A DNA stretch of 32,000 nucleotides, taken from positions 150,001-182,000 of the forward strand of contig JAFGBS010000004.1 in NCBI GenBank assembly GCA_016933055.1, written 5' to 3'. Below the pieces are notes generated by a model, which saw nothing but the letters and a program-made list of their open reading frames with translations, was not told the DNA's origin and did no database searches. This document shows, piece by piece, positions 3,480 through 32,000 of the stretch (positions are counted from its first letter, which is position 1; every line of letters starts with the position of its first letter). Made by a program: the position numbers and the translations under genes. This DNA comes from Promethearchaeota archaeon (GTDB lineage: Archaea > Asgardarchaeota > Lokiarchaeia > Sigyniarchaeales > Promethearchaeaceae).

Positions 3480-4433
3480 ATGACTGAAGTAAAAACATAT
3501 TCAAACTTAATGAAAGAAATCCAATCCGGAAGATTTGTCCTTACAGGAGAATTGGAACCGGAACGAACTGCTAATATTGAACCTACAGTAAATGAAGCGA
3601 TAGAATTAAGAAAATACTGTATTGCAGCAAATATAACTGATAATCCAAAATCCACAGTCTGCCTAAGTTCCTTAGCAGGCTCCTATCTAACTCAAGAAAA
3701 ATCTGGATTAGAAATCGTGTATCAACTTACCTGTAGAGATCAAAATCGGATGGGATTAGGTGCTGCAATACTAGGTGCTGCATCGCTCGGATTAAAAAAC
3801 ATACTCGCGTTGACTGGAGATCACAATGCATGTGGAGATATGCCCGCATCCAAACCAGTATTCGATTACGATTCGACTCATTTAATCCAGTTAGTGCGTG
3901 AAATGGCAGATAAACGCAGTATTGAGGGACTTCCTCTGGATGAGGATTGTCCGAATATAGAAATCCATGTTGGAGGAGCTGCAAACCCGAATGCAAGCCC
4001 TATGGAACCAGAAATAATGCATATCCAAAGAAAAGCTATGGCAGGTGTGGAATTTCTTCAAACACAAGTAGTCTATGATATTGAAATAGCGGAACCTTTT
4101 TTAAAAGAGATCCGAGAAAAAACGGGAGTTCCCGTATTATTAGGGATATTTCCAATGAGTGGGTATGGGGTAGCAAAAGGTTTTGATGAACTTGTTCCGG
4201 GTGTGAGTGTTCCTAAAGATCTACTTGCGAAATTCAAAGCTGTAAAGAAAGGTGGTTTAGGGAAAAAAGAGAAGAAAGAAGCATATCGCAAATTAAATGT
4301 GGATTTCTATGTGCCAATGCTGAAGGAATTAAAAAAGAAAAATCTGGTTGCAGGATGCCATATAATGGCCGTTCATTATCCAAAGATATTTCCTCCGTTA
4401 ATGGAAGCTTTGGATCTGCAACCAAGGGAATAA
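3480..4433 (+). CDS. metF: Methylenetetrahydrofolate reductase flavoprotein subunit MetF
   Basis: TGELEP, ITDNP, QLTCRDQNR, ALTGDH, FLQTQ, GCHIMA motifs of the FAD-linked MTHFR barrel. Start moved from 3426 to ATG 3480 because of the RBS. Confidence 0.9.
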   Translation: MTEVKTYSNLMKEIQSGRFVLTGELEPERTANIEPTVNEAIELRKYCIAANITDNPKSTVCLSSLAGSYLTQEKSGLEIVYQLTCRDQNRMGLGAAILGAASLGLKNILALTGDHNACGDMPASKPVFDYDSTHLIQLVREMADKRSIEGLPLDEDCPNIEIHVGGAANPNASPMEPEIMHIQRKAMAGVEFLQTQVVYDIEIAEPFLKEIREKTGVPVLLGIFPMSGYGVAKGFDELVPGVSVPKDLLAKFKAVKKGGLGKKEKKEAYRKLNVDFYVPMLKELKKKNLVAGCHIMAVHYPKIFPPLMEALDLQPRE

Positions 4434-4437
4434 AAAT

Positions 4438-5670
4438 TTATGGAATAGTAAAATCAATAGGTATATCATAGGTATAAGGGGTCATGTAGAAGTCCCCTGT
4501 AATTTCTTTTCCTACTAACATTTTATCAGCAAAATCCAACAACACAAGAAAATCTCCTTGTAGAAATCCATGCCTTCCTTTGCGATAGTGAAGTGCATTG
4601 TTTTCTATTTTTCCTAAAAATTCATACACCAGTTCAGTTGCCTTATATATTGCTTGGGTTCCGGACGGATTCGCCCAAAAATCGTGTAAAGCGTTGGTTG
4701 ATAAAAGCAATCTTGGTGCCACAAGTGAACATAAAAAATGCTGATCAAAAGGTAGATATTTCTCTTTTCCTGCATATTTATCAAAATCCCCTTTAAACCA
4801 AGATCGATAAGTTTTATCAGAAGTGATAATTCGAAGAGTTTCAGAAAAGGAACCTTGAACTAAAAAGGAACCTGTGCCCCCACACCCCGAATCATTGGGT
4901 ACTACCATTGCGAAACGTTTATCTAAAGCACCAGCTAATAAGGCAGTTTTTCCCCTCCGTGAATGACCAGTAATTATCAACATGTCTGGGTCCGTATTCG
5001 GTTTACCCTCGGGTGTTTCTACCCAACTCTCTCCAATTAAATAATCAACCACACAAGAGGCTCCCCATGCCCATACTCCCAGACTACCAAAACTATATGA
5101 AGGATAGATAGCTTGAATAGCTCCCACGACATCATACCCTTCCGTATCCGGATCCAAATCCGTATGATTGTAACAAACATATAAATACCCACGATTCAGA
5201 ATTGTATCTGCTATGGGAACTTGGGAACCAGAACCATCGGAACCAACTTTCAGAATGGTTGGATAAGGACCAGAACAATTAGGAATGTAAACCCAAATTG
5301 TCATATTAACGATTAAAGAGGGTGTTGAATTAAATGGAAAAAGAGATAATATTACAGTTTTTTTAGTTCCATTAGATAACTGCTCTTGTTGAATTTCCGT
5401 TGTTACAATTGAATCCGGACGATTTGGAATTGTTCCATATTCGATCGACAAAAGGAGAGTAATTATCTCATCTCTTCGGACTTCCCATTCTTCGAGAGTG
5501 GAAACCCGGGATCCATTATTGAGTAAAAATGGATCGGGTAAGGATTTTATGATTTTTGGATATTTTTGCCGTACCAAGAACCATGTACCACCAGAAATAA
5601 TACTACATACAAATGCCGATAGAATTAAGGTTACAAGTATTTTTCGCATTCTTCTTTCCATAAAAATCAA
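4438..5670 (-). CDS. Membrane-anchored CE15 family (glucuronoyl esterase-like) alpha/beta hydrolase
   Basis: N-terminal hydrophobic helix, LPDPFLLNNG, LGVWAWGAS, nucleophile elbow GHSRRGK, NDSGCGG, acid in SETL, LPFDQH, D-x-WANP-x-G, catalytic His in GRHG. Confidence 0.82.
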   Translation of the reverse strand: MIFMERRMRKILVTLILSAFVCSIISGGTWFLVRQKYPKIIKSLPDPFLLNNGSRVSTLEEWEVRRDEIITLLLSIEYGTIPNRPDSIVTTEIQQEQLSNGTKKTVILSLFPFNSTPSLIVNMTIWVYIPNCSGPYPTILKVGSDGSGSQVPIADTILNRGYLYVCYNHTDLDPDTEGYDVVGAIQAIYPSYSFGSLGVWAWGASCVVDYLIGESWVETPEGKPNTDPDMLIITGHSRRGKTALLAGALDKRFAMVVPNDSGCGGTGSFLVQGSFSETLRIITSDKTYRSWFKGDFDKYAGKEKYLPFDQHFLCSLVAPRLLLSTNALHDFWANPSGTQAIYKATELVYEFLGKIENNALHYRKGRHGFLQGDFLVLLDFADKMLVGKEITGDFYMTPYTYDIPIDFTIP

Positions 5671-25854: not shown

Positions 25855-27306
25855 TTATTCTTCAGTTTTATGTACTTGCTCTCCCCAATAGTGTTCCTTG
25901 GGATTTGGGTCTAACGTTGTTGTAATCTCGGAAATATTTTCTTCAATACCTTGCATAATTAAATATCCCGAGTTTAACTCTCTATCTGTGATCTCCCCTG
26001 CTATATTGGTAGTCATAATTTCTTTTACTTCAGTTATATTTCGTGTATGCCCTAATGTCCAAATCAATTTAGCATACGCTGCTGAGGGTAGCATATTATC
26101 TCCCTCAATTACTCCTAAAGCTAACATATCTCTACCTGTTTCGTATACTCGGAGATTTGTGTACCCAAAAAGAGGCTCTACAACAATAACTACTGGTATT
26201 TCTTGTTCTTGGGCACGTTCTAAACCTGGGAAGAAATCACTTGGGACATGTCCCAATCCGGTTCCTAAGATTACCACTCCATGGTATCCCAAATCAATGA
26301 TAGAGTTAAGTATATCTGGATTACAACCAGGATAAGAATATAGGATTGCCACCTTAGGATCAATTTTTGCATCAAGATAAGTATCTTCCGTGTTCCCACG
26401 TTGTTTTATATCAGTTTTAAAAAACATTATATTCTGTTTTGAGTCGATCATTCCTAACGGGATATCACTTAGCGTTTTGAATGCATCTCGTCTACTTGAA
26501 TGCATTTTCCGAACACGAGTTCCCCGATGGATAAGATTATAAGTATCAGATGTATTACCATGCATGCATACAACCACTTCTGCTAAATCTGCATATCCTG
26601 CAATAGTGCTTGCATTGATAATATTCATAGGCCCATCGCTAGACGGTCTATCTGAACTTCTTTGCGACCCCACGATGACAATGGGGGCTGCAAGATCTTT
26701 AAAGAAAAAGGACAATGCTGATGCCGTAAATGCCATTGTATCAGTTCCATGACCAATAATTACCCCACTTGCCCCATTATGAAATTCTTGGAGAATGGCT
26801 TCAGCAGTTTTTACCCAATATTCTGGTTTGAAGTTTTCAGAGAGGATGGAATAAATCTTTTTAGGAGTCAGATTGCAAATGTTCATCAGTTCTGGAACCG
26901 CACTAAAAAGTTCCTCTGGGGTGAATGCTGGTAAAACAGATCCTGTTCGATAGTCTAAACGAGATGCAACTGTCCCTCCCGTTCCCAGTAATGATACATT
27001 TGGTAATTCCTTTTTAGTTTTTACATCAATTTCAGGTAGATGATAGTCTCCCTTCTGGTATCCGATTTCGGTGATTTTGCATTCATCGGTAATTTTTACA
27101 CCAATGTTATAACCAGTATCAACTTTTACGACCAAATAATCTTCGGCAGTGTGTTCACTACGAGGAAGTACCACACCCTCATAAATAGAATTTCCTCTCA
27201 CTACTTTTACTACAGACCAAACCCCTATCTTTTCCCTAATTAGTCTTTCTCGTAACTTCGATCTGTATCCCGTAGGTTCTCGCACTGAATTTTTCTTGTT
27301 TGGCAT
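25855..27306 (-). CDS. gatD: Glu-tRNA(Gln) amidotransferase subunit D, paralog B
   Basis: N-terminal GatD domain (TGYNIGV), TGGTVASRLDY, HGTDT, GSQRSSDRPSSD, RGTRVRKMHSSRRDAF, GTGLGH; extra ~27-aa C-terminal tail. Start ATG 27306 or GTG 27315. Confidence 0.95.
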   Translation of the reverse strand: MPNKKNSVREPTGYRSKLRERLIREKIGVWSVVKVVRGNSIYEGVVLPRSEHTAEDYLVVKVDTGYNIGVKITDECKITEIGYQKGDYHLPEIDVKTKKELPNVSLLGTGGTVASRLDYRTGSVLPAFTPEELFSAVPELMNICNLTPKKIYSILSENFKPEYWVKTAEAILQEFHNGASGVIIGHGTDTMAFTASALSFFFKDLAAPIVIVGSQRSSDRPSSDGPMNIINASTIAGYADLAEVVVCMHGNTSDTYNLIHRGTRVRKMHSSRRDAFKTLSDIPLGMIDSKQNIMFFKTDIKQRGNTEDTYLDAKIDPKVAILYSYPGCNPDILNSIIDLGYHGVVILGTGLGHVPSDFFPGLERAQEQEIPVVIVVEPLFGYTNLRVYETGRDMLALGVIEGDNMLPSAAYAKLIWTLGHTRNITEVKEIMTTNIAGEITDRELNSGYLIMQGIEENISEITTTLDPNPKEHYWGEQVHKTEE

Positions 27307-27311
27307 TTTTC

Positions 27312-29033
27312 TCACACCTTCTTTGGTTCTAGATATTTCTGCGCTGCAAAATCATAGATATTATTTTTTTTCTTTAATCCTTGCTGAATTACTATTTTTA
27401 TCTCTTCCACGCCCATATCGGAGGTGTTTACTCCCTTTCGACGAAGATGTTTCAAAGTTTCCGTCAAATAAGAGTAAGCTATTATAGGTTTTATGTTATA
27501 ATCTTTAATTAATATCAAGAAGTCATCCAAACGGTTTTCATGGACTAAATTCTGCAATTGATTGAATTTTAATCCATATTTTTCCGAAAATTCTTTTTCT
27601 AACTCCCATGGACGTTTCCCAACCTTAGATTTTAAGGATTGAATCCTTTGTAATTCTAAATCTAACGCAGGAGTATCAGTATCGGGATATAAGCGATCTT
27701 TTCCATGAATTACTCGTAAAAACTCCGAATTTCCGTTAGGTAGTAGTCTGCGTGTTTCTTGTGGAACACCATCTAGTGCATATTTCAACCGTTCAATAAT
27801 TTTTTTCATTGCATGAATTGTCCACGAATTTTTTCCCATTGCAACACAATACGCATCACGTTCCGTTATATCCAACACATCACAAATTTTTCCATCTAAA
27901 CTCTTATCGATCAATGGAAATAAAAAGGGTAATTTTTTATTTCTTCTACGTTGGGCGTTATCAGAAAGTTCATCTGAATGATACATGTGCTCTACCAGAA
28001 TTCCGCTGATTAAACTTGCTTTTTCAAATACATCTTGACCAAAATCCTTTCCTGGTTGTATTTCTAATCCTAAGATTCCTTTAAATTTGGGCAACCGAAT
28101 TGCCATGACGCTTAATCCTTTTGGAATGCTATCAGAGGGAAATTCTTCTGTGATTTCATAATAAGTATGTTCTAAATGTGACTTTTCAAAACCTCGCTCC
28201 TTTAATATCCCTGCAATCTGAATTAACATATCCTGTCTGACTATTTCATGCCTCGCAAGTGTATCAAACATAGAAAGATCTTGAACTCCCTTAATTTCAA
28301 CCCGATCTCCGCCTTTAATACTGATATTTACATCTTGACGAACCGAACCTATGCCGGTTCTTCCGATTCCACTAAGTCTTAAGGTTAATCCGATGATTTC
28401 TCCTAGTTTTTTCAAATCCGTAGGATTTGTGCAATCTAGATGGTCCGTAATCACCTCCACCAAGGGAATTCCCAATCGATCCAGATTATAATACACCGTA
28501 CGTCCGAAATTCTCCGTTTTTAGTTTTCGGGCTGCATCCTCTTCTACAGTTAAATTTGATATTCGCACCCTTTTCCCGTTCACCTCTACCCACCCATCTC
28601 TGGCTACAATTAAAGTACGCTGAAAACCGGTTGTGATAGAGCCATCCAAATATTGTTTCCGGGCTACTATCCCAACATCCACCAACGCTGAGCAATTTAG
28701 CCAGTGTGCTAGTTGATACCCCGCATAAATTGCCTCTAAGTCTGGCCAAAACGGTGGTTGTTCATCTTGTTCGTATAAACATGTGCATTCCGTATAAGCA
28801 TGATAGATAACACGATATCCTTTCTCGTATTCAATTAACATTCCCTCATCAAAATCACCCATTTCTCCTAATACAGGACGGAAACGCCGTTCGAACATAT
28901 AATCAGGAGTCTCCGTTCGTAATTCTGGTTTACAATTACAAAATAGTTTCCGCTTAGATTGGATTTGGTGGTGGACTTCTAAACCAGCTCTAAAACCAAT
29001 CTCTTCAAATGAAATTGTTTCGGGATCGAGCAT
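27312..29033 (-). CDS. gatE: Glu-tRNA(Gln) amidotransferase subunit E, paralog B, lacking the C-terminal Yqey-like tail
   Basis: GLEVH, KLFC, RKQYLDGS..GFQRT, EEDAAR, LDRLGIPLVE, RQDVNISI, EIKGVQ, RLYPDTD; ends 120 aa after YPDTD. Confidence 0.93.
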   Translation of the reverse strand: MLDPETISFEEIGFRAGLEVHHQIQSKRKLFCNCKPELRTETPDYMFERRFRPVLGEMGDFDEGMLIEYEKGYRVIYHAYTECTCLYEQDEQPPFWPDLEAIYAGYQLAHWLNCSALVDVGIVARKQYLDGSITTGFQRTLIVARDGWVEVNGKRVRISNLTVEEDAARKLKTENFGRTVYYNLDRLGIPLVEVITDHLDCTNPTDLKKLGEIIGLTLRLSGIGRTGIGSVRQDVNISIKGGDRVEIKGVQDLSMFDTLARHEIVRQDMLIQIAGILKERGFEKSHLEHTYYEITEEFPSDSIPKGLSVMAIRLPKFKGILGLEIQPGKDFGQDVFEKASLISGILVEHMYHSDELSDNAQRRRNKKLPFLFPLIDKSLDGKICDVLDITERDAYCVAMGKNSWTIHAMKKIIERLKYALDGVPQETRRLLPNGNSEFLRVIHGKDRLYPDTDTPALDLELQRIQSLKSKVGKRPWELEKEFSEKYGLKFNQLQNLVHENRLDDFLILIKDYNIKPIIAYSYLTETLKHLRRKGVNTSDMGVEEIKIVIQQGLKKKNNIYDFAAQKYLEPKKV

Positions 29034-29084
29034 TTTGCGTCACATTAGTAGAGAATTATTGGAATAATAATGATTTTATAAGTT

Positions 29085-30446
29085 TTATTCTGTCCTTCCT
29101 TGAAGAATCCTATATCCTCGTATCTCTTCGCGTGGAAGGATCTCTCCTGCTATGTTTGTGATCATTAGGGTTCTAATTTCATCTTTCGATTCACATTCCC
29201 CTAGGATCCAGCAGAGTTTCGCGAACGCTGTTTCGGGGATCATGTCTGCGGGGATAACTCCTAAATCCTTCAATTTTCGTCCATTAGAATATACGTCCAT
29301 TCCAGTAAATCCCCATAATGTTTGTAAAGCCATAACTACTGTAACGTCTTCGGAAGTCGCACGGTCAATCGCTTTAAAAGTATGATTTGGAGCGTGTCCC
29401 AACCCCGTACCTGCAAAAACCATTCCTTTATATCCCTTATCAATATAAAAATCTATTATTTCTGCAGACATGCCGGGATAGATATGCACTAATGCACATT
29501 TGGACTCTATTTTTGTGGAGCACACTGTATCAACATCCGAATTCACCTCAGATTTACGAACCAGATTATTTTTAAACCAAGTGATTTCACCATGATCAAT
29601 TTTTCCAAGAGGAATATCTCCAATTGTTTTAAATGCATCACGGGCAGAAGAATGCATTTTTCGTACACGAGTCCCTCGGTGAATATATCCAAAAGTATGG
29701 GAAGAACTACCAAGCATACATAACACGACTTCTGCTATATCTCCGTTTGCAGCCAACTGAGTTGCATGAATCAGGTTCATAGCAGCATCAGATGACGGGC
29801 GATCCGAAGATCTCTGACTACCCACAAAAACTACGGGTATTTTAAGATTTTTAACTAAGAAGGATAATGCCGCCGTGGAATATCCGATGGTATCGGTACC
29901 GTGCCCAATTACTACTCCATCTATCTCTTTGTTACTTAAAGAAGCAACTTCTTTTGCTAGCCTTAACCAATTTTTAGGCTCCATATCCTCGGAGAAAATT
30001 TTAAACACAATTTTTGTATCCAAGTTACAAATATCAGCAAGTTCTGGCACAGCGGCATATAATTCATGGGGTTGAAAAGCTGGTATCACTCCCCCTGTCA
30101 CATAATCTAGTCGAGACGCAATTGTGCCTCCAGTTCCTAATAAAGTCACATTGGGTTTAGCTCTATCTTTAGGAACTGAAACCCCTTTGAATTCCACTTT
30201 CATGGGGGGGTTTTTACCTACAACCCGAACAGTATCCAAATCTTGCACTTTTATCCCAATATTATACCCATTTTTCAACTTGATCTCGATATACCCATCC
30301 TCTGCAAACTGATTCCTGGGTAATATTATTCCTTGAAAGATTGAATTTCCTTTTTTGATCTCCACCTTATCCCATGCTTCAATATCATGTTCTTTGAAAA
30401 ATTTCTTGGATATATGCTTGTAACCTTTAGGTAAATTTGAAGGCAT
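29085..30446 (-). CDS. gatD: Glu-tRNA(Gln) amidotransferase subunit D, paralog A
   Basis: LKNGYNIGI, TGGTIASRLDY, HGTDT, GSQRSSDRPSSD, RGTRVRKMHSSARDAF, GTGLGH. Confidence 0.95.
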   Translation of the reverse strand: MPSNLPKGYKHISKKFFKEHDIEAWDKVEIKKGNSIFQGIILPRNQFAEDGYIEIKLKNGYNIGIKVQDLDTVRVVGKNPPMKVEFKGVSVPKDRAKPNVTLLGTGGTIASRLDYVTGGVIPAFQPHELYAAVPELADICNLDTKIVFKIFSEDMEPKNWLRLAKEVASLSNKEIDGVVIGHGTDTIGYSTAALSFLVKNLKIPVVFVGSQRSSDRPSSDAAMNLIHATQLAANGDIAEVVLCMLGSSSHTFGYIHRGTRVRKMHSSARDAFKTIGDIPLGKIDHGEITWFKNNLVRKSEVNSDVDTVCSTKIESKCALVHIYPGMSAEIIDFYIDKGYKGMVFAGTGLGHAPNHTFKAIDRATSEDVTVVMALQTLWGFTGMDVYSNGRKLKDLGVIPADMIPETAFAKLCWILGECESKDEIRTLMITNIAGEILPREEIRGYRILQGRTE

Positions 30447-32000
30447 CTATTCTTCCTCCTTTTTTAATAAATTAGTCATTTCTGATTTGACTACTTGAGA
30501 GACTATCTTTCCGTCTATTTTTCCCCTTACTTCTTTCATTACTTCACCCATTATGGGACCCATTGCCCCCATCTGACGTTCACGAATAAGAGAAACAAAG
30601 CTTGGCATCAATGACTGCACGATCTTTCTTAGTTCTTCAATACTCATCGAGGTTATGTCCATAGTTTGCATAGCATCTTTAATTGTGGACTGGGGCTGGT
30701 CACACAAATATGCTAATATCTCTTCAATTGCCTCCTTTGCTATCAGTTTTTTTTCAAGTAACTCAAAAATGCGCACAAAATGGGAATCTTTTAGATTCTC
30801 TACTTCTTTTCCATCTCTTCTGAGAGTTTTAATCGTTTCTAATAACGTGCTAACGATGATTGTGGGTTTTCCAGAATATACTTTAAGGATTTCTTCCAAT
30901 AGTTGAAGATTTCCATCAAGAGTGAGTTGCTCTAATGACTCGTGAGGAATTTTATATCTTTTCTCGAACTCCTTCATTACTTCCCAGGGATAGCGTGGAA
31001 GATTTGCTTGGATTTGTTTTAATTTTTCAGAAGAGATGGGTATTTCTCTTGAATCTGTATCGGGATATAATCGTTTTGCACCATGTAATTCGCGTAAGAA
31101 TTCCGTATTTCCATCCTCTAAGGCTTTACGGGTCTCTTCTGGTACTCCCTCCAAAGCTTTGATTAACCGATCTCTAACAATTTCAAATGCTTGAAACAAT
31201 CGGTCAGGCTTTCCTAAAATCAATACAAATAAATCCTTTTCATCACATTTCAAGGACTTCTTAATATCTAAGATTTCTGATTCGGAAAATTGATACTTGG
31301 AGAGAACTTCATCGCTATGAATTAATCCTTTTAAACCAGTTATTGATCCCATTTTACTAGCAATTTCTGTACCAAATCTACGCCCTTCTTGAATTTCTTC
31401 TCCCCAAAGAGCGTGCATATTTGGTACCCTCCATCCCCAAACCAATTTCCCCTTTTTTACTCCGTTACGAACAAATTTACATTTAGTTTCTTGGAATATT
31501 TCCGTTATATCTAAAGGATTGTCAGTAAAACTAGTGGGTGTCAATTTTCGCTTTAACATTTCATTGCGTATATCAAGAAGCGCTAATTGCCGAGTCACCT
31601 CATTTCGAATTAAAATGGGAATCCAATCTAATTTTTGTACCCCTTTGATCTCGATACGGGCTCCTCCCTTTATGGAAACATTGAGATCTTGACGGATAGC
31701 TCCTAAAATCTTCTTTACCTTTCCTGTACTTCTCAGAAGGATACCTATTCGCAATGCAGCTAAGCGTGCTTCTTCTGGTTCATTAATATCGGGTGCAGTT
31801 GTAACCTCTACTAATGGAATTCCTAAACGATCTAATCGAAATTGGATCATATTTTCTTTCTCTCCGGATCTTCTACAAGAATCTTCTTCAAGACAAAGTA
31901 ATTCAATACCAATGTTTTTGTGTTCAGAAATTGGAATATCTCCATTAATCCCAACTATGGCAGTCCTTTGAAAGCCTGCAGGAACACTTCCATCAACATA
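30447..32000 (-). CDS. gatE: Glu-tRNA(Gln) amidotransferase subunit E, paralog A (5' end beyond window)
   Basis: The frame stays open past 31850 to the window edge (YVDGSVPAGFQRTAIVG...LEEDSCRR...), then LDRLGIPLVE, RQDLNVSI, RLYPDTD and a full C-terminal MGEVMKEVRGKIDGK Yqey-like domain. Confidence 0.95.
   Translation of the reverse strand, partial: YVDGSVPAGFQRTAIVGINGDIPISEHKNIGIELLCLEEDSCRRSGEKENMIQFRLDRLGIPLVEVTTAPDINEPEEARLAALRIGILLRSTGKVKKILGAIRQDLNVSIKGGARIEIKGVQKLDWIPILIRNEVTRQLALLDIRNEMLKRKLTPTSFTDNPLDITEIFQETKCKFVRNGVKKGKLVWGWRVPNMHALWGEEIQEGRRFGTEIASKMGSITGLKGLIHSDEVLSKYQFSESEILDIKKSLKCDEKDLFVLILGKPDRLFQAFEIVRDRLIKALEGVPEETRKALEDGNTEFLRELHGAKRLYPDTDSREIPISSEKLKQIQANLPRYPWEVMKEFEKRYKIPHESLEQLTLDGNLQLLEEILKVYSGKPTIIVSTLLETIKTLRRDGKEVENLKDSHFVRIFELLEKKLIAKEAIEEILAYLCDQPQSTIKDAMQTMDITSMSIEELRKIVQSLMPSFVSLIRERQMGAMGPIMGEVMKEVRGKIDGKIVSQVVKSEMTNLLKKEEE

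Follow-up and report, generated by a model that had tools for sequence, protein, structure and literature searches.

Reviews describe archaea as lacking glutaminyl-tRNA synthetase (GlnRS) and GatDE as a single-copy, archaea-specific amidotransferase dedicated to Gln-tRNA(Gln) (PMC9499178). Why, then, does one Asgard archaeal genome carry two gatE-gatD pairs in direct tandem? The locus lies in a 32,000-nt stretch of DNA, referred to in its entirety as the window, from a Promethearchaeota archaeon of the family Promethearchaeaceae (GenBank GCA_016933055.1, contig JAFGBS010000004.1, positions 150,001 to 182,000 of the forward strand), whose genome (3.76 Mb) is 91% complete. It comprises four co-oriented open reading frames (ORFs) on the minus strand, in the order gatE-A, gatD-A, gatE-B, gatD-B. 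By domain content and phylogeny, pair A is the canonical GatDE (type A) that Lokiarchaeia have inherited vertically. Pair B is a member of a GatDE lineage of its own (type B), confined to Asgard archaea and apparently undescribed, and, judging from the trees and the layout in relatives, was probably acquired by transfer of a two-gene gatE-gatD cassette, with no local duplication. We tentatively favour a role for pair B as a second Glu-tRNA(Gln) amidotransferase isozyme in which checking of the tRNA would be relaxed. Gene content, domain loss, phylogeny, distribution and selection are observed; its substrate and mechanism are inferred.

The components of the locus are:

30447..32000, minus strand: gatE-A, canonical GatE (TIGR00134, Pfam), continuing past the window end to window-equivalent position 32390
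29085..30446, minus strand: gatD-A, 453-aa glutaminase subunit with GatD_N and asparaginase N and C domains (TIGR02153)
29034..29084, minus strand: spacer between pair A and pair B, 51 nt, read directly from the sequence
27312..29033, minus strand: gatE-B, 573 aa, with intact cradle/catalytic core, remodelled insertion and helical domain, and without the YqeY tail
25855..27315, minus strand: gatD-B, type B GatD with all glutaminase motifs present (TIGR02153, 519 bits)

The ORF reading of the window agrees with the positions and gaps given in the initial annotation, made from the sequence alone: 0 nt between gatE-A and gatD-A (gatD-A starts immediately 3′ of the gatE-A stop codon), 51 nt between gatD-A and gatE-B, and −4 nt (GTG start) or +5 nt (ATG start) between gatE-B and gatD-B. 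GatD-B is 486 aa long from the GTG and 483 aa from the ATG at 27306, which lies behind GGTG and is the likelier start. The in-window part of gatE-A corresponds to the C-terminal 517 codons of a gene of 647 aa from a TTG (644 aa as recorded). The spacer between the pairs, which is 43 nt in relatives, holds TTATAAAA ~40 nt upstream of the gatE-B ATG; this is a candidate separate archaeal TATA box, and pair B may have its own promoter.

Both pairs are recognisable as GatDE. GatD-A scores 497 bits and GatD-B 519 bits against NCBIfam TIGR02153 (cut-off 324; GatD equivalog cut-offs 310–324), GatD_N and both asparaginase Pfam domains were detected in each, and GTGGT(I/V)ASR, HGTDT and RVRKMHSS are kept in both, confirming the glutaminase Thr/Thr-Asp/Lys motifs (GTGGT, HGTDT, RK) noted in the initial annotation. 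Against TIGR00134 (cut-off 319.55), GatE-A reaches 472 bits with its in-window part and 620 bits with the full gene (profile positions 2–620). PF02934 (GatB_N), PF02938 (GAD), PF02637 (GatB_Yqey) and PF09424 (YqeY) are all present in it, and its domains are the cradle, a GAD-type insertion, the helical domain and the YqeY tail. GatE-B is above the cut-off of the same profile (406 bits) and slightly below that of NF003107 (450.4 bits; cut-off 456), and matches PF02934 with an E-value of 1e-39. The invariant catalytic GatE columns are common to types A and B, with 69 columns conserved in both groups, and alignment bears out the core motifs and the RLYPDTD motif in both GatE subunits. RLYPDTD is carried by 16/22 Asgard type A, 9/17 type B and 5/122 other representatives, among which RMYPETD is dominant. 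The motif had been taken as a sign of duplication within one clade; it is typical of Asgard-type GatE and rare elsewhere. A tandem duplication at this locus is not supported. The two pairs, 36% identical in GatE and 46% in GatD, are deeply diverged enzymes and not a collapsed repeat, as had been recognised from the sequence. Between A and B, the thresholds applied left no strict type-II divergence sites (conserved in both groups yet different); 13 B-specific signature residues, several of them adjoining catalytic motifs, emerged under a less strict test.

A survey of 400 genomes of the phylum placed type B in four Heimdall-like families and the Promethearchaeum/Lokiarchaeum family only, i.e. 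at least five families in two classes, with each type B gatE directly preceding a type B gatD. In the window's family type A is present in 14/14 genomes and type B in 9/14 (4/7 genera), including the cultured, closed genome of Promethearchaeum syntrophicum (G142); a type B GatE is also present in the NCBI record of Ca. Lokiarchaeum ossiferum (P0052). The sister family, in the window's own order, has type A only in 135 genomes. One Heimdall-like family carries type A and type B GatE in the same genome, type B is the sole GatE in another family of that class (31 genomes, two closed), and one genus of the class (22 species) includes A-only, B-only and A+B members. GatE-B is 52–66% identical to GatE of 650–670 aa from Heimdall-like and Promethearchaeum-family genomes, P. 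syntrophicum and 'Heimdallarchaeota' metagenome-assembled genomes among them. GatE-A shares 48–60% identity with GatE proteins of ~639 aa that carry GAD and YqeY domains and number in the hundreds. When 1.84 billion representatives were scanned, type B resolved into about five full-length 50%-identity clusters, with a drop in score from 479 to 341 bits to all other GatE. A second GatDE lineage is not described in any paper found by full-text literature searches on GatDE in Asgard archaea.

The GatE and GatD trees agree that type A follows taxonomy and that type B sequences group in a single, strongly supported clade with a long stem (0.73 for GatE and 0.31 for GatD) and slow evolution afterwards. 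Within this clade the window's family adjoins the A+B Heimdall-like family in both trees. Rooting with GatB nests type B inside the GatE radiation, in a polytomy with Asgard type A groups; this global tree (FastTree, a single very distant GatB outgroup) does not settle the exact sister group of type B. Origin of pair B by duplication at this locus is not borne out: pair B groups with Heimdall-like type B, and the 135 sister-family genomes are A-only. The varied layout of the two pairs in relatives also supports the absence of a local tandem duplicate, as they are divergent neighbours 0.6–7 kb apart in three genomes, 25 kb apart in one and unlinked in the Heimdall-like family. The direct tandem and the tail-less form are found only in the window's genus, where the tandem recurs with the same flanks on four further contigs from other samples. 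In the same-genus genome G131, 7.7 kb (L010:6068-13732) containing an ABC-transporter ATPase, a 961-aa ORF without a Pfam match and small ORFs separates the pairs, so that even within the genus they need not stand in direct tandem. Apart from pair A in the window's family, no conserved neighbour gene of type B was found across families; in one genus of that family a stand-alone 359-aa type I asparaginase is convergent with gatD-B (L011:211-1287, L012:124-1194).

Judged by substitution rates, pair B is alive and under strong purifying selection. Compared with a same-genus genome, dN (nonsynonymous divergence) is 0.209 for GatE-A, 0.165 for GatD-A, 0.151 for GatE-B and 0.091 for GatD-B, and omega (dN/dS) is ~0.05 for GatD-A, GatE-B and GatD-B. 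These omega values are rough because dS (synonymous divergence) between the two genomes of the genus is saturated (>2); dS was not computable for GatE-A. Of the four genes, gatD-B evolves most slowly (its product shares 87.5% identity with that of the same-genus relative and 70–76% across two classes), while GatD-A is 54–59% identical within the family. Strain specificity with relaxed selection, named in the initial annotation as an outcome that would refute its reading, is not what was found: type B spans at least five families in two classes and evolves more slowly than pair A. In a metagenomic same-genus relative (L075:8588-9958), gatD-A has a TGA in place of the Arg codon of SQRSSDRPSSD, which may reflect a genuine nonsense variant or an error in sequencing, and pair B is intact.

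GatE-B differs from GatE-A mainly in the modules that contact the tRNA. Its match ends at position 531/630 of the GatE profile and at residue 530/633 of Pyrococcus abyssi GatE, and a Pfam search found no PF02637/YqeY match in GatE-B; pair B had initially been called complete, but its GatE lacks the C-terminal YqeY tail of ~100 aa. A tail remnant 3′ of gatE-B is impossible, because gatD-B begins at the gatE-B stop. A tail encoded in trans was considered and rejected, PF02637 being found only in GatE-A in a whole-genome search. An AlphaFold2 model of GatE-B (mean predicted local confidence, pLDDT, 91.8; predicted TM-score, pTM, 0.89) contains the cradle, the inserted domain and a helical bundle ending at residue 572, and its best fold match is GatE 1zq1_C (E 8e-47), with 2d6f also among the best. 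The inserted alpha/beta domain (~285–420) is modelled with high confidence and aligns with GatE structures, without a Pfam GAD match. In type B, 7 aa are deleted from the insertion domain and a basic stretch of 15–25 aa is inserted in it.

Constraint varies along the protein. Identity within the cradle is higher in type B (0.65–0.70) than in type A (0.56), whereas identity in the helical domain and tail is lower (0.28 and 0.23 vs 0.38 in type A). In full-length type B the tail motif of type A, GP(L/I)MGEVMKEV-RGKIDGK, survives only in blurred form, and in two type B families it can no longer be recognised. The short form of GatE-B (575–579 aa) was found in six close relatives only, other type B GatE being 650–670 aa. 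On these comparisons, the YqeY tail is deleted only in the window's genus, and degeneracy of the helical and tail modules is clade-wide in type B; since the modules are degenerate across type B, tail loss would be the end point of a clade-wide relaxation in reading of the tRNA body. In published work, reading of the tRNA D-loop, and with it rejection of Glu-tRNA(Glu), is ascribed to the YqeY-like domain, and GatB and GatE are held to need the tail for productive binding of tRNA (PMC2330236); the GatE insertion domain is the proposed docking site of glutamyl-tRNA synthetase (GluRS) (PMC2943598).

The window's genome encodes a single archaeal GluRS, and no GlnRS was found in the 91% of it that is represented. 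Its tRNA(Gln)(UUG) combines A1-U72 with a D-loop of 9 nt. In both tRNA(Glu) the D-loop is 11 nt long and the end pair is G1-C72, as it also is in tRNA(Asn). A1-U72 together with a short D-loop in tRNA(Gln) is the published GatDE identity set (PMC2330236); both features are kept in tRNA(Gln) of the window's genome and of ten other Asgard genomes, B-only genomes included. With A1-U72 in tRNA(Gln) and G1-C72 in tRNA(Glu), the tRNA could still be selected at the acceptor end. No second type of tRNA(Gln) was found, tRNA(Gln)(UUG) being the only one among 37 tRNA matches in a genome 91% complete, so that absence is not shown. A tRNA-like match at G000:C17:774772-774846 (RF00005, 35 bits) was given a four-base anticodon (cgta) and no amino acid by ARAGORN.

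The isozyme role for pair B is favoured because one family has no GatDE other than type B and because A-only and B-only species alternate within one genus (type B alone in the 31-genome family and in seven species of a genus in which other species are A-only). Type B would have arisen by rapid change, on a long branch, within the Asgard-type GatE radiation, and would be native to the Heimdall-like class. A gatE-gatD cassette would then have passed to the ancestor of most of the Promethearchaeum syntrophicum/Lokiarchaeum family and been retained beside pair A. The GatD glutaminase and the GatE kinase/transamidase machinery appear to have been retained under strong constraint, while the helical and tail modules that read the tRNA body would have degenerated, ending in clean deletion of the YqeY tail in the window's genus. 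Pair B would take ammonia from Gln or Asn and amidate the activated glutamyl group on Glu-tRNA(Gln), with the tRNA presumably chosen via its acceptor end (A1-U72), perhaps via the partner GluRS, and without a D-loop check. Such an enzyme would be an isozyme with looser or differently organised tRNA selection, and not an Asp-tRNA(Asn) enzyme.

A complication comes from the Heimdall-like class itself. Full-length GlnRS (TIGR00440, 630–750 bits; cut-off 426) was found in only three families of the phylum (21/31, 12/22 and 10/12 genomes), where it accompanies a separate GluRS; all three belong to the Heimdall-like class, to which type B is native. Examples (TIGR00440), with ~40 more, are:

G015:C1:1132418-1134016, GlnRS
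G016:C1:1224390-1225988, GlnRS
G067:C1:2444400-2445989, GlnRS

In three genomes (G011, G058 and G064) two tRNA(Gln) genes lie 0.2–4 kb from the GlnRS gene. The literature yielded only a passing mention of this GlnRS, in bioRxiv 10.1101/2024.07.04.601786. Several observations weigh against an isozyme role. Each lineage with type B as its sole GatDE has GlnRS in most genomes, and with GlnRS alongside, being the sole GatDE is no proof that type B makes Gln-tRNA; these genomes may need no GatDE for Gln-tRNA. The B-only genomes in which no GlnRS was detected, even when re-searched at a loose threshold, are all incomplete metagenome-assembled genomes, and two of them also lack GluRS matches and are therefore uninformative. 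Types A and B have long coexisted in two families, contrary to simple redundancy, and a single tRNA(Gln) gene (UUG) was found in the 91%-complete window genome. To these are added the long stem branch and the remodelling of the domain proposed to dock GluRS (PMC2943598). A tail-less enzyme might also bind tRNA poorly or mis-amidate, D-loop reading being the role of the YqeY-like domain (PMC2330236). Two B-only species have an intron-bearing tRNA in which the acceptor stem is that of tRNA(Gln) (A1-U72) and the D-arm resembles that of tRNA(Gln), but to which ARAGORN gives a CUA anticodon; it may be a UAG-to-Gln suppressor:

L098 (G058:C10, ~37762), CUA tRNA
L094 (G064:C20, ~11211), CUA tRNA

Because B-only lineages carry GlnRS, a new substrate for type B stays in play. 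Of the roles put forward in the initial annotation, service to a different tRNA(Gln) isoacceptor and a non-tRNA amidation are still conceivable. A possible but doubtful course of events is that GlnRS took over in a Heimdall-like ancestor and that the freed GatDE copy changed fast and acquired a new carboxylate substrate, either another aminoacyl-tRNA or a non-tRNA molecule bound by the catalytic cradle alone; it would then coexist with pair A in the Promethearchaeum family since the two are non-redundant. Confinement of GlnRS to three families of the class in which type B is native is consistent with this, as are the long type B stem (0.73 GatE, 0.31 GatD) followed by slow evolution, the clade-wide degeneracy of helical and tail modules (with the tail dispensable in the window's genus), the deletion (7 aa) and basic insert (15–25 aa) in the insertion domain, the 13 B-specific signature residues, several beside catalytic motifs, and the stable coexistence of A and B in two families. 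However, A-only and B-only species alternate in the mixed genus with GlnRS detected equally often in both (7/12 vs 4/7), full-length type B of most lineages has a recognisable YqeY-like tail (with a PF02637 match in many), residues common to the GatE and GatB cores are all kept, tRNA(Gln) of B-only genomes keeps the GatDE identity set, and no conserved neighbour indicates another pathway. The same idea in its strongest form, rather unlikely on present evidence, would make type B a new enzyme class, freed by GlnRS in the Heimdall-like relatives of eukaryotes, independent of tRNA-body reading and acting on another aminoacyl-tRNA or a non-tRNA carboxylate, which later spread to the Promethearchaeum family and of which the tail-less form would be the most derived.

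Two further explanations are far less probable. The initial annotation suggested that pair B might be an Asp-tRNA(Asn) amidotransferase standing in for a missing GatCAB. The window's genome has no gatA and no gatB beyond cross-matches to both gatE, gatB occurs in one family only (f17) of the 83-genome Heimdall-like class, no AsnA was found in the window's genome and its sole AsnB-like ORF scores below the cut-off; loss of the D-loop reader would also remove one published discriminator against tRNA(Asn) (PMC2330236). The idea is nevertheless without support and very unlikely, because asparaginyl-tRNA synthetase (AsnRS) is present almost everywhere: at 430 bits (cut-off 342.6) beside a separate aspartyl-tRNA synthetase (AspRS) in the window's genome, and above the cut-off in 68/83 genomes of the Heimdall-like class irrespective of type B. 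Across 61 genomes of the order the presence of AsnB bears no relation to that of type B, being equally patchy in the A-only sister family and in the window's family, GatE-B appears to keep the GatE-specific insertion, which is modelled to clash with class II AspRS (PMC2330236), and tRNA(Asn) has G1-C72, not A1-U72. The other explanation, that the tail-less pair B of the window's genus has become inactive or is decaying, or regulates without catalysis, and is tolerated since pair A works, would fit the view that GatB and GatE need the tail to bind tRNA productively (PMC2330236), with no other YqeY domain encoded in the genome. It is highly improbable in light of a dN below that of pair A with omega ~0.05, catalytic motifs that are all intact, a length of 573–579 aa and a coupled gatE-B/gatD-B junction kept in at least six relatives from different samples, and a relative in which gatD-A, not pair B, has the premature stop.

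In type A gatE of two other Asgard families, a 30-nt insert lies inside the invariant DE-T-PPF codons and brings in an in-frame TAG, joined in one genome by a TAA. The insert folds as a hairpin with a stem that covaries among three genomes, and is a candidate mRNA mini-intron or a candidate for other removal at the RNA level. Its locations (sequence, fold) are:

L039:~4660-4700 (G117), 30-nt gatE insert
L040 (G119), 30-nt gatE insert
L041:~3770-3800 (G114), 30-nt gatE insert

A second conserved GatDE lineage in Asgard archaea stands against the review picture of a single-copy enzyme (PMC9499178). Occurrence of type B with canonical GatDE, with GlnRS or with both makes a natural series in which the indirect Gln-tRNA pathway is replaced, duplicated or repurposed, and this series belongs to the closest lineage to eukaryotes. 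With the tail-less GatE, a natural loss of the D-loop reader has persisted under strong purifying selection, and so tests the share of this domain in tRNA selection. New from the window are the stable tail-less state, evidence on the direction of transfer, the domain-specific constraint, the link to GlnRS and the evidence against an Asn-tRNA role.

Among known systems, the closest is archaeal GatDE (Methanothermobacter thermautotrophicus, PDB 2D6F; P. abyssi, PDB 1ZQ1), which has the same two subunits and the same gatE-gatD coupling, GatD_N plus an asparaginase-type glutaminase with Thr/Thr-Asp/Lys motifs, and the cradle, inserted and helical domains of GatE; by sequence as well as by fold, 1zq1 and 2d6f match best. 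Pair A falls within this group without special features. Pair B, in contrast, lies in a separate clade with 35–40% identity to any other GatE, has a remodelled insertion without a Pfam GAD match, lacks the YqeY tail, and belongs to a type that coexists with canonical GatDE or, elsewhere, with GlnRS. GatCAB, which amidates Asp- and Glu-tRNA in bacteria and archaea and is the known Asp-tRNA(Asn) enzyme, is another related system: GatB shares the cradle core and a YqeY-like tail with GatE and has no insertion domain, whereas GatE-B scores only 73–109 bits on GatB models (cut-offs 315–680), appears to keep the GatE insertion, and is partnered by a GatD-type glutaminase, not a GatA amidase, neither gatA nor gatC being present as a partner. 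A precedent for division of labour between two diverged copies of a Glu/Gln-tRNA pathway enzyme in one genome is provided by GluRS1 and GluRS2 of Helicobacter pylori (PMC2777447), although there the synthetase is duplicated and its specificity is known, while here it is the amidotransferase, and the second copy is probably a xenolog.

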